This document shows positions 57,210 to 61,494 of a stretch of DNA of 64,000 nucleotides, piece by piece. A model generated the notes under the pieces. The model was not told the DNA's origin. It saw only the letters and a program-made list of their open reading frames with translations, and ran no database searches. The translations under genes were made by a program, and so were the position numbers. The stretch lies in IMG/VR virus record IMGVR_UViG_2519899835_000003; one strand, given 5' to 3'. This stretch comes from a virus. Taxonomy: Duplodnaviria; Heunggongvirae; Uroviricota; Caudoviricetes. How positions within the stretch are numbered: position 1 is the first letter of the stretch; each line of letters begins with the position of its first letter.

Positions 57210-57491
57210 ATGAAGTTCAAATTGAACGATGAAGTTAAATGGTCAAGCTCATCAAACGGTGTAACGAAGGTAAAAATCGGGTTTATCGTCGAGGTGATTC
57301 CTCCTGGTGTCAACGTAAAAAAATTCGAACTAGGCCGTCTGCTAGATGCACCTGGCCTTCCGAGGAAAGAAGAGAGCTATATAGTTTGTGTAGGTTCAAG
57401 ACCCGGATCTCGTGCCAAGCCAAAATATTACTGGCCGCGAGTTAATAACCTGCGTCGATTACAACAAAAAACTTGCGCCCTTAAAACTTGA
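57210..57491 (+). CDS. Hypothetical protein
   Basis: 93-aa ORF directly after N. Confidence 0.45.
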   Translation: MKFKLNDEVKWSSSSNGVTKVKIGFIVEVIPPGVNVKKFELGRLLDAPGLPRKEESYIVCVGSRPGSRAKPKYYWPRVNNLRRLQQKTCALKT

Positions 57492-57628
57492 AATTCTTCA
57501 GGCCGCCGGAAAAATGCAGCTTAAACTGGACGAATTCATCGACTGTATGGATGAAATGAATAAAGCAGTTCAGAAGCTTAAAGAGCTGACCGCCTGATAT
57601 TAATAAATTGCAACTACCGGAGTTAACT

Positions 57629-57988
57629 ATGAATGAAACAGAACTGAAGCACATTATCGCCCTGCTTCTGGAAGATGCCAGACAGGTTTATCGACTTAGC
57701 CCAAATTCCGCAACGCAGGAACGCATCCGGATAGCGGAAACAGCACTGAAACAGGACAATGGAAACGGCATATCCAAATTTAGCGCCGCCAGTGAAAATG
57801 AAGTAATAGAAATAAACAGCAATATCAGCGACAGTTGCGTCGCTTACAGCCACCAAATAATTCGTGTAAGTGCAAGAATAATGGAAGTGATGGCAAGTGA
57901 GCTTGAAAAGAACAACATCAAGCCCACTGATTGTTGTTTAAGAACCGTAATGAACGTTATTTATTACTCGATGTTCCGAAGTCGCTAA
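57629..57988 (+). CDS. Hypothetical protein
   Basis: Start MNETELKHII with GGAG upstream; AT-rich. Confidence 0.45.
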   Translation: MNETELKHIIALLLEDARQVYRLSPNSATQERIRIAETALKQDNGNGISKFSAASENEVIEINSNISDSCVAYSHQIIRVSARIMEVMASELEKNNIKPTDCCLRTVMNVIYYSMFRSR

Positions 57989-58166
57989 CAGCGTCGAGTT
58001 TTTCATTAAAAAATGATTCAAATGCATCGTAAAATACGGCAATAGCACCGCCCTTATCTACCGCGGCAGGAACTGCCTTTTGAGGTATATCTTTCTCCGT
58101 AAATTGTGTGTTGTAAGTATCGACAGCCAGCCGCATCAGAAACATCACTTTTTCTTCTTGTGTCAT
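57957..58166 (-). CDS. Hypothetical protein, convergent
   Basis: 69-aa ORF on the opposite strand. Confidence 0.3.
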   Translation of the reverse strand: MTQEEKVMFLMRLAVDTYNTQFTEKDIPQKAVPAAVDKGGAIAVFYDAFESFFNEKLDAVSDFGTSSNK

Positions 58167-58622
58167 AAATTCACTCTCCTTACGGGGTTTGTAGTTGAGG
58201 AGTTCTCCACGGGTGAGGTGGAGATCGTGCGCCGGACACGGGTGAGTTCCTGCACTCTCAGTTTACTGAACAGACATTACCCTGAAAGCCAGGGTACTAC
58301 ACGAAAGCGCGAGGCGAAGACTCTTTCCCATAGAAGGATTGTCGTTAGATTTCTTCGACCGTGCGCTTCCGGTTGTGAATAACAACATTGCTGTGTGTAA
58401 CCCTTGGCGGATATCGGTTTGCCGATTGCTGATGTCCGCCCTTTTTAAAGTGAATTTTGTGATGCGGTGAATGCGGCTATGCGCACGCGGAACAGTTAAA
58501 CCGACAGGATGTCACGGAAAGTCATCGTCCCCTGACCCGGCGTTAGTTGTTAACTGGTTAACGTCACCTGGAGGCACCAGGCACCGCATCAACAAAGTTC
58601 ATTTGTGAAAATGGAGATAATT

Positions 58623-58844
58623 ATGATTGCTCATCACTTCGGAACTGATGAAATACCACGTCAGTGCGTGACGCCTGGCGATTATGTTCTTCATGAAGGT
58701 CGGACATATATCGCTTCAGCAAACAATATTGAAAAGAGAAAACTCTATATTCGTAACTTCACAACAAAAACATGCATTACCGACTGCATGATTAAAGTTT
58801 TCATCGGGCGCGATGGCTTACCCGTAAAAGCAGCGTCGTTGTGA
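58623..58844 (+). CDS. Hypothetical protein
   Basis: Start MIAHHFG with GGAG 7 nt upstream. Confidence 0.4.
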
Positions 58845-58927
58845 CGAGTAATAAAATACACCTTCCATATCTGTAACAGACAAGCCGAAATAAAACCGCA
58901 TTAATTATCAATCACGGAAAAATCAAA

Positions 58928-59314
58928 ATGAAAGAACTTGCGCAAAATGAAATATTTTCCAAAACCAGTCCTGATGCAATAAATGAACTCAAAGAAATTG
59001 CAGAACGCATCAGTAAAATATGCAAAGAATACAAAATCGACTTTGTATTTTCTTTTTCAGTGCTTACAGAAGTTGGAAATAACGAATATAAGGACAGTCG
59101 TTTTGTTTTATGTGGGTTAAATGGCAAAACACCAAGCCCATATATTCATGCTGCACGTGAAGTTGTCAGAAGCAACATTGGAGTACAACAAATCCATACA
59201 CTTGCACAGGCTCTTGAGTTTGCAAGAGAAAATTCTGAGTGCGACTGCCCTGAATGCCAGCACGAAAAGGGAAAAACAACTCACAAAACAGCAAACCAGG
59301 CAACCTTCCACTGA
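58928..59314 (+). CDS. Hypothetical protein with C-terminal CDCPEC motif
   Basis: 128-aa ORF; strongly AT-rich. Confidence 0.5.
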   Translation: MKELAQNEIFSKTSPDAINELKEIAERISKICKEYKIDFVFSFSVLTEVGNNEYKDSRFVLCGLNGKTPSPYIHAAREVVRSNIGVQQIHTLAQALEFARENSECDCPECQHEKGKTTHKTANQATFH

Positions 59315-59421
59315 AATAAAAATCCGGCAGCGCAGGCTACCGGATTTCTCCCTGCGTCACCGTATTCGGAGAAATCAGACAAAGGGTCGCTAATTCTAAT
59401 CCAGCCAGAGGTTTAAATACA

Positions 59422-61494
59422 ATGAGCGCTGATAAACAGACTTTTGCACTACACTGCGAAGCAAAAAACGATAAAGTCAGAAAACGCCTTGGCATCAAAG
59501 GCGGTTTTTTCTGGACCGAGGCCAGAAAACTTTCTGTCGCAGTTTCCCGCTGCATTGCAGCCATGGACGATGCAGGCTACGACGAGGATGATTTCAAAAA
59601 ACCCGTTCGCGTAAATTTCCCCGTCGTGAATGACCTTCCACCGGAAGGCGTGTTTGATACTGAATTCTGCAACCGCTATGAAAAAGGCGGTAACGATGGC
59701 ATCACCATGATGGCTATCCCCTTCGATGACAACATCAACGGTGAAGATGCCACAACTGCTGGCGATGACAACGATAACCTGGACGGAACTATTCCGGATG
59801 ATGTGGAGAAAAGCGAATCCCCGGACAGCGACGATGACTGTTCTGAGTGTGAAATTCCCGTCGCCACTCTGAGCCTTACTCATCGCTTCCTTCACCTCTT
59901 CTTATTCAGCAAAGATGAAGATGGAAAATACCGGCATCATGCCACACCAGAACAACGCAATAACGTGATCCGTATGGAGATGGACACAGAGGACAGTTAC
60001 CTTCAGAGCCTGCTTACTGCTGTGCGCGCCGCGCATCATGAACTGGATAAACTGACGAACTATCACCTTAGTCGCCTGGCTGAATCTGTAGGGAAAGCAT
60101 TCCCCCACTCTGCAAATCATCGCATCAGCCCGGCTGAATTCGACAAGTTCATTTCCACCTGGATGAAAACTGACTACCTTGATCAGGGCCTGCTGACAAA
60201 AGAATGGCAGAACGGAAATTATGTTTCAGGCATTACCCGTACGCCTTCCGGTGCTAACGCTGGCGGCGGAAATATTACCGATCGTGGTGAAGGATTCAAA
60301 CATGATAAGACATCACTCGCACGAGATGTAGCCACCGGCGTTCTGGCCCGTTCAATGGATGTGGATATTTATAACCTGCACCCAGCACACGCAAAACGCG
60401 TTGAAGAAATCGTGTCAGAGAATAAGCCGCCCTTTTCTGTTTTTCGCGACAAATTTATCGCCATGCCCGGTGGGCTGGATTATTCCCGCGCCATTGTGGT
60501 GGCTTCCGTGAAAGAAGCACCAATCGGCATTGAGGCCATCCCGGCACGCGTGACTGAATATCTCAACAAAGTGTTGACCGAAACCGATCACGCTAACCCG
60601 GATCCGGAAATCGTGGAAATTGCCTGCGGTCGCTCATCAGCACCGATGCCGCAGCGCGGAACAGCAGAAGGAAAACATGGCGATGAAGAAAAGCAACAAA
60701 CATCGGACACAATGGCTAATGAACAGGCAGCGCCTGAATCAGTGGAAGAAATTCCAGTTAAACATAATGAGGACACGCAATCACTGGAAAATGTCTCATC
60801 TGTAGAAACGAAATACCAGGAACTGAGGGAGGAACTCAATAAAGCCAGGGAAAACATCCCCCCAAAAAATCCAGTCGATGCCGACAAATTACTGGCTGCC
60901 TCGCGTGGAGAATTCGTTGAAGGCATCAGTAACCCTGCTGATCCGAAGTGGGTGAAGGGGATCCAGACTCGCGACACTGAGGACCAGAATCAGCCCAAAG
61001 TGGAACAAATTGCCCCAGAAGCGGGACAAAACAGCCCGGATACGCAACAAAACGGGCCAGAAGAGCAACAGCCAGGGCCAGTAATGCAACAGGAAGTGGA
61101 AAAGGTTTGCACCACATGCAGTCAGAACGGTGGCGGCCATTGCCCTGACTGTGGTCCAGTAATGGGAGATGAAACTTACGCTGAAACTTTTGGAGAAAAT
61201 GACGCCGCTGATGGAGAAGACTCAGCACAAACTGAGGAGAAGATCATTCAGGAAAACTCTGTTGATGCCGCTCAGGAGGGCGAAACCGTTGTTCAGAACG
61301 AGCCAGGCAGTGATACGTCCGGCGATGACGCCAATTCTGAGCCAGTAACTCTCGACTGGAAAAGACAGCTCGTGATTGCCGCCGTCTATGGTTTGTGCGC
61401 CAACCCCGCATGTATAGCCACAGCGCCAGCAATCCCTGATATCGCCATCATGATTGCCAACAGGCTTGAAAATTTCGAAGGTGATAAATCATGA
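59422..61494 (+). CDS. Large acidic hypothetical protein (690 aa) with C-terminal cysteine cluster
   Basis: Stop overlaps the gam start; D/E-rich stretches; [17 protein letters not shown]. Confidence 0.65.

Follow-up and report, generated by a model that had tools for sequence, protein, structure and literature searches.

A stand-alone N-terminal region of RecE, lacking the nuclease domain, encoded immediately upstream of gam in a lambdoid early-left operon

The DNA considered here is a stretch of 64,000 nucleotides (nt) of the virus record IMGVR_UViG_2519899835_000003 (Caudoviricetes), referred to as the window, the right end of which is a lambdoid early-left (pL) operon. Between the N and gam genes of this operon lie several small open reading frames (ORFs), a homologue of the kilR gene of the Rac prophage, and an ORF encoding a protein of 690 amino acids (aa), hereafter recE-N(tail). 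As judged by its sequence, the 690-aa protein is the non-catalytic N-terminal module of exonuclease VIII (the RecE protein of Rac) in stand-alone form, with a short C-terminal tail in the place of the nuclease, and the gene is kept intact under purifying selection. The best overall explanation, to which we attach moderate confidence, is that the nuclease-less module acts as an adaptor, most likely one that assists the Red/Gam recombination proteins encoded downstream.

RecE homology without the nuclease

Residues 55-197 of the 690-aa protein match the Pfam family Exonuc_VIII (PF06630; E 1.8e-12, 48 bits, with a cutoff of 25), and the phrog_607 profile is matched over positions 1-617 of 883. 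BLAST alignment to Rac RecE residues ~43-578 gives 51% identity, rising to ~90% in residues ~250-410 and 460-520. The NCBIfam RecE equivalog NF007259 is matched over profile positions 1-598 of 877, scoring 740.4 bits against a cutoff of 1269. An earlier, sequence-only reading of the window recognised none of the genes between N and gam; both KilR and a RecE-family protein are in fact clearly recognisable.

The 690-aa protein has no Pfam match to PF12684, the C-terminal PD-(D/E)XK 5'-3' exonuclease domain that occupies residues ~600-866 of RecE. Three nuclease domains (that of Rac RecE, the DUF3799 domain of a 1049-aa relative, and the DnaQ-like domain of an 813-aa relative) were used as tblastn queries, and none was found in the 64-kb window. 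Likewise, tblastn with K-12 RecT gave no match in the window, and the 690-aa gene is followed instead by gam-bet-exo (61491-63252), a lambda Red module whose products are named Gam, Bet and exonuclease in near-identical phages. In the case of the 1049-aa relative (P0115), identity is 87% over residues 1-~590 and the sequences diverge just past a cysteine cluster; alignments with the long forms end around residues 590-610. Because the PD-(D/E)XK nuclease is replaced by a tail, the 690-aa protein is not an exonuclease, despite the labels 'exodeoxyribonuclease VIII' or 'RecE family exodeoxyribonuclease' that it carries in public records.

The sequence-only reading described an acidic protein with D/E-rich stretches, and this description is borne out by an isoelectric point of 4.56, by 126 D+E residues against 67 K+R residues, and by an excess of negative charge in four stretches (residues 101-140, 416-457, 514-560, and 593-642). 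It also described a C-terminal cysteine cluster. The cluster exists, as C563, C566, C574 and C577 in a CxxC-x7-CxxC arrangement (residues 563-577), and 'C-terminal' is a loose description of its position, which is ~115 residues from the C-terminus and just upstream of the acidic linker after which the family diverges.

Alternative C-termini and the tail motif

A HMMER scan of 1.84 billion cluster representatives returned 208 family members at E <= 0.001. Six aligned proteins share the N-terminal ~600 residues, consisting of the first ~100 residues, a strongly conserved core at ~245-415, a linear motif (LAASRGEF…DPKW), and the CxxC…CPDC cluster. The four cysteines are invariant in this alignment, as is the linear motif, even though the six proteins have four different C-termini between them, and A492, R495, G496, P508, K509, and W510 are conserved in at least 80% of family representatives. 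The first type of ending is the PD-(D/E)XK domain PF12684 of Rac RecE, followed by recT, and the second is a larger PD-(D/E)XK domain, DUF3799, in the 1049-aa protein of strain 6817, also followed by recT. The third is a DnaQ-like Rv2179c 3'-5' exonuclease domain (PF16473, E 1e-67) in CFT073 and RM13322, followed by xis and int, and the fourth is a tail of ~45 residues, as in the window protein. Classing of the full-length members with domain probes gave the same four classes, together with unidentified C-termini and one RecE-N::RecT fusion. The 703-aa protein P0124 has the PF06630 region joined directly to the RecT domain PF03837, and is either a natural recE-N/recT deletion fusion or an artefact of assembly or engineering.

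In the window protein, the tail is a ~45-residue motif at residues 643-685, QQLTIAALQGLCANPA…, and the tail consensus is L[TS][YW]xQQLTIAALQGLCANPA…[DE][DE][IL]PxMAxxLA. About 25 representatives of 50%-identity clusters, sharing just 21-30% overall identity with the window protein, end in this tail, which is the best-conserved segment of those ~25 proteins, with 33-50% identity in distant genera. All matches to a hidden Markov model of 23 tails lie within 0-7 residues of a C-terminus, and no nuclease-bearing member has one; residues A653, A654, G657, N661, and P662 are invariant. No match to the tail was found in Pfam or the PDB. A tail-profile search of a 5.8-billion-protein set scored no more than 319 candidates, yielded nothing but short fragments or stand-alone ORFs, and is uninformative on other architectures. 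Taken together, these alignments indicate that the tail is an old, dedicated C-terminal module.

Three resemblances of the tail were considered and set aside. A weak profile match to the spidroin N-terminal domain (E 0.036) was treated as chance. A membrane anchor was not favoured on hydropathy, the mean Kyte-Doolittle value over 19 residues being ~1.75 in the window copy and ~0.5 in the family consensus, and on the model, which is an amphipathic helical hairpin. A likeness of 'DDIPxMA' to the C-terminal tip of SSB or to the FtsZ C-terminal peptide was not counted as evidence; the window copy (APAIPDIA) lacks the acidic residues concerned.

Selection and predicted structure

The databases contain hundreds of proteins of 680-700 aa with 77-99% identity to the window protein, and the ORF is intact in more than 100 clusters. 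Ratios of nonsynonymous to synonymous substitution (dN/dS) were calculated by the Nei-Gojobori method against four homologues of 682-690 aa, from PhiR5_2, phiSTEC1589-Stx1c, strain 23CRST047, and Shigella phage 75/02 Stx. The overall dN/dS is 0.22-0.26 for the three sufficiently divergent copies, the PhiR5_2 copy differing at 18 sites only. Where divergence suffices, the folded modules and the tail have ratios of 0.06-0.19 (0.14 for the tail against the Shigella phage 75/02 Stx copy), with 0.06-0.16 in the region of the linear motif; those of the acidic linkers are 0.5-1.1. The hundreds of intact homologues and the overall dN/dS argue that the 690-aa ORF is not a chance ORF, and the gene is kept intact under purifying selection. 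The divergence is also block-wise, being zero in one module and reaching a dS of 0.5-1 in the adjoining one, which shows that intragenic recombination has taken place between modules.

An AlphaFold2 model made from a 138-sequence alignment predicts one globular domain of ~415 residues, formed by residues 1-100 and 141-415, with a predicted local distance difference test score (pLDDT) above 90. Disorder is predicted for residues 104-136, 416-456, and most of 514-644, and the net charges of the disordered segments are -15, -9, -8, and -14, the folded part being near neutral. The linear-motif region is modelled with helices at residues 458-477 and 487-494, and the tail as a helical hairpin at 646-683 (helices 646-659 and 662-683; pLDDT 55-67). 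A Foldseek search of the model against BFVD gave nothing at E < 0.001, structure, sequence and profile searches of the PDB found no neighbour for the folded domain, and the conserved core falls outside every Pfam model. As modelled, the folded domain looks novel or at least uncharacterised. The sequence-only reading had proposed remote homology and structure prediction as a check on the interval; of these, the former identified the RecE family and the latter gave a confident model for residues 1-415, with no PDB or BFVD neighbour and thus no clue to function.

Genomic context of tail-bearing relatives

As the sequence-only reading pointed out, the end of the 690-aa ORF overlaps the start of gam. 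The stop codon TGA (61492-61494) and the gam ATG (61491-61493) create the 4-nt arrangement ATGA at 61491-61494. The 690-aa ORF is co-transcribed with gam from pL, and the overlap is compatible with translational coupling. E. coli FORC_069 has a prophage gene with 100% identity to the window gene, and at least 80% of the window gene is present in 98 of 5426 complete E. coli genomes. The first ~290 nt are shared by ~1000 complete E. coli genomes, where they lie in genes of the 813/814-aa type.

Loci with tail-bearing members were drawn from IMG/VR (80 loci) and GTDB (8 loci), and were divided into an Escherichia/Shigella type, whose protein shares 48% identity or more with the window copy (n=67), and loci of other genera, with at most 46% identity (n=21). 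The gam gene starts at the stop of the tail ORF, or overlaps it, in 66 of the 67 Escherichia-type loci, and the exception (L029) gave no match to gam. After gam, most Escherichia-type loci have Bet-Exo; seven IMG/VR loci have a Sak4-like AAA_24 gene instead, and in one locus (L071) the ORF pattern after gam suggests an insertion sequence (IS) element. A Rac-like sublineage has the order KilR-YdaE-RacC-RecE-N(tail)-Gam-Bet-Exo-RalR-RcbA-Int, which is the Rac layout with the nuclease domain and recT swapped for the tail and gam-bet-exo. At the Rac attachment site by ttcA in Shigella sonnei (L018-L020), the tail-bearing gene is broken by IS elements and is followed by gam and a Sak4-like AAA_24 gene, with no bet-exo; the 77-aa tail fragment cut off in this way is listed as a gene of its own in 62 contigs.

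The arrangement is different in the 21 loci from other genera, where neither gam nor a recombinase was found, and where the tail gene is followed by a gene for an Rrf2-like winged helix-turn-helix protein, DUF1187, xis, and int. The eight GTDB loci are from Citrobacter, Buttiauxella, Lelliottia, and Cedecea. In most of the other-genera loci a small zinc-finger ORF lies directly upstream, and may be a conserved partner of the tail-bearing gene. For instance, in L008, L009, L010, L012, L013, and L014 an ORF of ~65 aa with a CxxC…C..H zinc finger, resembling YdaE, comes immediately before the tail gene or runs into its start. The 813/814-aa RecE-N proteins with the DnaQ-like domain (L004 5001-7442, CFT073; L005 4001-6445, RM13322) are encoded last before xis/int, with no annealase nearby. 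The N-terminal module thus persists with RecE/RecT, with Gam-Bet-Exo, with Gam and a Sak4-like ATPase, or with no recombination system.

The interval between N and gam

Table 1. Features of the N-gam interval and its flanks (positions are those of the window).
Feature	Position	Strand	Remarks
cI	55480-56187		
N	ends 57201		
orf93	57210-57491	+	phrog_11941, function unknown in PHROGs
3' remnant of 237-aa gene	~57458-57597	+	phrog_2539 end
orf119	57629-57988	+	phrog_2982
orf69	57957-58166	-	phrog_2605
Intergenic region, 456 bp	58167-58622		carries KilS-like region
KilS small RNA region homologue	58355-58446	+	alignment to Rac kilR upstream region
kilR, 73 aa	58623-58844	+	Rac KilR homologue
orf128	58928-59314	+	phrog_2016
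recE-N(tail), 690 aa	59422-61494	+	RecE-family protein without nuclease domain
Folded N-terminal domain, aa 1-100 + 141-415, predicted; disordered acidic insert aa 104-136	59422-60666	+	
Conserved helix and linear motif within disordered sequence	60793-60996	+	
Four-cysteine cluster CxxC-x7-CPDC, putative zinc ribbon	61108-61152	+	
C-terminal tail motif, aa 643-685, predicted helical hairpin	61348-61476	+	
gam	61491-61787	+	Pfam Gam E 4.8e-65
bet	61793-62578	+	
exo	62575-63252	+	

The sequence-only reading was correct in noting the low GC content of the small ORFs, which is 0.38-0.43, compared with 0.50 for the window (orf128 0.382, orf69 0.405, the 73-aa gene 0.423, orf119 0.428, and orf93 0.433). 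Low GC is confined to these small ORFs, the GC content of the 690-aa gene being 0.502 and equal to that of the whole window. All of orf93, orf119, orf69, and orf128 are rare, match only PHROG families of unknown function, and have no match in Pfam, NCBIfam, or PADLOC. Neither the six ORFs of the interval nor an 88-aa ORF just upstream (56341-56607) matched any PADLOC family, and no anti-defence annotation was found for the interval ORFs in PHROGs, Pfam, or NCBIfam. The 88-aa ORF lies on the minus strand between cI and N, a position typical of lysogen-expressed genes, and also has no NCBIfam match.

The left part of the interval contains a recombination junction. A 61-aa ORF (57412-57597) matches only the end of the phrog_2539 profile (positions 183-229 of 229, that is ~47 positions; E 7e-23), corresponding to an intact 237-aa gene in PhiR5_2 and most relatives, whose DNA identity to the window starts at ~57458. 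The segment ~57458-57597 is a recombination scar, in which ~47 last codons of the 237-aa gene remain. To the left of the junction, N and orf93 belong to a different lineage with a Stx1/PA28-like N region. The orf93 product spans the full 88-position profile of phrog_11941 (E 6.5e-46); it gave no tblastn match among 50,697 phage records, and is found in some IMG/VR relatives of the cassette.

To the right of the junction, orf119 matches the full-length phrog_2982 profile (E 1e-77), occurs in 10 phage records, every one annotated 'hypothetical protein', and is upstream of kilR in most related loci. Convergent with it, and overlapping it by 32 bp, is orf69, which matches phrog_2605 (E 9e-45 over 69/69 profile positions), has a strong Shine-Dalgarno sequence (AAGGAG) 9 nt before its ATG, is among the genes called in related E. 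coli contigs, and is carried by three phage records. It occupies the position of sieB, the opposite-strand exclusion gene of Rac. Shigella phage 75/02 Stx lacks orf69, and Edwardsiella phage EPP-1 has a 47%-identical homologue. Such a gene may be a moron expressed in the lysogen. The remaining orphan, orf128, is found only in Escherichia, and in the phage collection is confined to the same six records as the tail-bearing gene. It fills the racC slot of Rac, directly upstream of the recE-family gene; no BLASTP alignment with RacC was obtained at E <= 100, and its structure model gave no functional lead.

The 73-aa gene between orf69 and orf128 is, by homology, kilR. Its product is identical to Rac KilR at 66 of 73 residues (90%), matches the NCBIfam model NF008465 over its full length (154.5 bits, cutoff 92), and matches phrog_294 'Kil' (E 1e-37); the family also has a Pfam reference, PF27398. 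KilR inhibits host cell division and elongation (PMC12482147). Upstream of kilR, the KilS-like region is identical to annotated K-12 kilS at 70 of 98 positions, including a terminator-like 3' end. Rfam scores here are below gathering thresholds for both DicF (58392-58441; 29 bits vs 48) and STnc100 (58443-58637; 31 vs 47), and the placement of this region before kilR parallels that of dicF before dicB in Qin-type prophages.

Elsewhere in the window, the minus strand carries a 360-aa ORF (53396-54720) that contains a (QE)n run, and short ORFs just upstream of it repeat the peptide QQPQQPEADxxxxxxIPGPS, which suggests DNA repeats, perhaps iterons, in the replication region.

Possible roles of the nuclease-less protein

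At a single junction, the N-terminal module is followed by one of three nucleases or by the tail, and it persists across recombination systems, which argues that the module does a job of its own. It may serve as an autonomous, non-enzymatic adaptor or scaffold in contact with a DNA structure or a host partner in DNA metabolism, whereby the C-terminal piece would supply the effector, either a nuclease in cis or, in the tail form, a docking or oligomerisation hairpin. In this phage, the 690-aa protein would most likely be an accessory factor of the Red/Gam recombination module. Such a role would be consistent with the report that full-length RecE improves linear-linear recombination (PMC11611040).

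Several points weigh against an adaptor devoted to Red/Gam. The adaptor role is inferred from architecture only, and both the tail and the zinc cluster are modelled at low confidence (pLDDT 30-67). Strongly conserved polar residues in the folded domain (T274, D287, R288, D313, R356, and H390) might belong to an active site and not to a binding surface. In Escherichia, the linkage of the tail to gam could stem from common descent and the overlap of the genes, and not from function. Moreover, the tail protein occurs without a recombinase or Gam in the 21 loci from other genera, which speaks against a primary role bound to Red-type recombination and keeps host-directed roles, counter-defence included, in contention.

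Counter-defence or host takeover is the strongest of the rival explanations, and is one that we regard as rather unlikely. Here, RecE-N would bind, neutralise, or hijack a host nuclease or immune sensor, the acidic linkers would be flexible nucleic-acid mimics, and the orphans would be anti-defence genes comparable to racC. The position in the pL accessory region, the tight linkage in Escherichia to gam, an anti-RecBCD gene, the autonomous function implied by the 21 prophage loci without a recombinase, and the low GC and narrow distribution of the small orphan ORFs are all in keeping with such a role. There is also a precedent in Rac, where racC, directly upstream of recE, blocks the retron toxin RcaT, and where RecE itself triggers that RcaT retron (bioRxiv 10.1101/2020.06.22.160242); as the RecE nuclease triggers retrons, an N-terminal module with an outsourced nuclease might evade sensing. 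However, no homology to known anti-defence proteins and no PADLOC match was found, and in relatives the same module is fused covalently to recombination nucleases. Disorder is predicted for the acidic stretches, which evolve in a near-neutral manner (dN/dS 0.5-1.1), and the model has no structural match to DNA mimics; for these reasons, a DNA-mimic anti-restriction protein of the Ocr/ArdA type, with its rigid acidic surface, was rejected.

The sequence-only reading had proposed these genes as candidates for anti-defence or exclusion, and the proposal survives in part. The pL accessory region, the low-GC orphans, and the precedent of the racC slot speak for it, whereas KilR is neither an anti-restriction nor an exclusion protein, the 690-aa protein is the RecE N-terminal region, and no PADLOC or anti-defence match was obtained. 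Clear homology to a housekeeping phage function, which that reading had named as evidence against itself, was found for one gene of the interval, the 690-aa protein being homologous to the RecE N-terminal region. It is position alone that suggests an anti-defence role for the orphans or the RecE-like protein, and among the small orphans orf128 is the best positional candidate for counter-defence. A bolder version, more doubtful still, would have the N-terminal two-thirds of RecE be an autonomous, structurally novel effector platform with swappable C-termini, either three nuclease types or a 45-aa docking tail, directed at a target in host DNA metabolism or immunity, with the tail form, always found with Gam in Escherichia, acting in counter-defence or host hijacking and orf128 blocking an abortive-infection toxin.

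It is improbable that the folded domain is instead an enzyme of undescribed fold, with an active site made up of T274, D287-R288, D313, R356, and H390 (TDR…DYSRA…TETDH), a substrate that would be DNA, a nucleotide, or a host protein, and an auxiliary C-terminus. These polar residues are very highly conserved in a family that is otherwise 25-50% identical, and they sit in a confidently modelled globule of ~415 residues that has no PDB neighbour and a core beyond every Pfam model. Yet patches of polar residues are as typical of binding interfaces, no catalytic motif can be recognised, and neither fold nor profile resembles that of any enzyme.

Least probable by far is a non-functional remnant, passively carried since the lambda Red cassette replaced the 3' end of recE and recT: RecE homology does end just past the cysteine cluster, gam does start at the stop codon, Rac-like prophages do show exactly this exchange of nuclease domain and recT for tail and gam-bet-exo, and copies in Shigella sonnei are IS-disrupted, but a truncated pseudogene is rejected by an ORF that stays intact at 680-700 aa in more than 100 clusters down to 77% identity, by the dN/dS values (0.22-0.26 overall, 0.14 in the tail), and by the age of the tail motif, which is always C-terminal and is retained at 33-50% identity in distant genera.

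The window protein bears on a question of wider interest. RecE/RecT is a workhorse of recombineering, and for decades there has been no explanation of what the ~600 N-terminal residues of RecE do; the nuclease domain alone substitutes genetically for RecE, and the N-terminal part is described as 'of unknown function' (PMC11611040). A natural nuclease-free module under selection argues that this part has its own function, and natural stand-alone constructs make the role of the RecE N-terminus testable. The name 'exodeoxyribonuclease VIII' on proteins that cannot be exonucleases also represents a widespread annotation error. Finally, screens for counter-defence genes have a concrete candidate in orf128, which fills the racC slot.

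Comparison with known systems

A nuclease-less 'RecE-2' in lambdoid Rec modules was already noted in 2025, as 'distantly related', with its role unknown and without further analysis (Genome Res, PMC12315714). The window protein has the attributes of 'RecE-2' as they appear there, namely RecE homology, the lack of a nuclease domain, and a lambdoid early-left setting (N…kilR…gam-bet-exo-int), and may be among the proteins listed in that report. The tail motif, the alternative C-termini, and the linkage to gam are not described in the text consulted. More generally, we found no description of the tail motif, the four-way C-terminal modularity, selection on the modules, the near-invariable pairing with gam in Escherichia, or the lack of a structural neighbour.

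The genes preceding recE-N(tail) resemble those of Rac to varying degrees. KilR is 90% identical between the two, and the KilS-like upstream region is homologous. Rac, phiSTEC1589-Stx1c, and several related loci have the zinc-binding gene ydaE after kilR; it is missing from the window, where only 83 bp (58845-58927) separate kilR from orf128. Both orf128 and racC are small orphan genes immediately upstream of a recE-family gene, but the likeness is positional only, as the sequences are dissimilar and the products differ in length (128 aa, compared with 91 aa for RacC).

For the recE-family gene itself, two points of reference are available. The 813/814-aa proteins of the CFT073/O157 type are 80-85% identical to the window protein in the first 100 aa, have the same linear motif and cysteine cluster, and are encoded at the same end of the early-left operon, but carry the DEDD exonuclease domain PF16473 in the place of the tail and have no adjoining gam, bet, or exo. 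Rac RecE (866 aa) shares with the window protein the PF06630 region, the LAASRGEF…DPKW motif, the CxxC…CPDC cluster, and the operon position downstream of kilR. The two part ways at the C-terminus, where Rac RecE has the PF12684 nuclease and is followed by recT, whereas the window protein has a 45-aa tail and is followed by gam-bet-exo.

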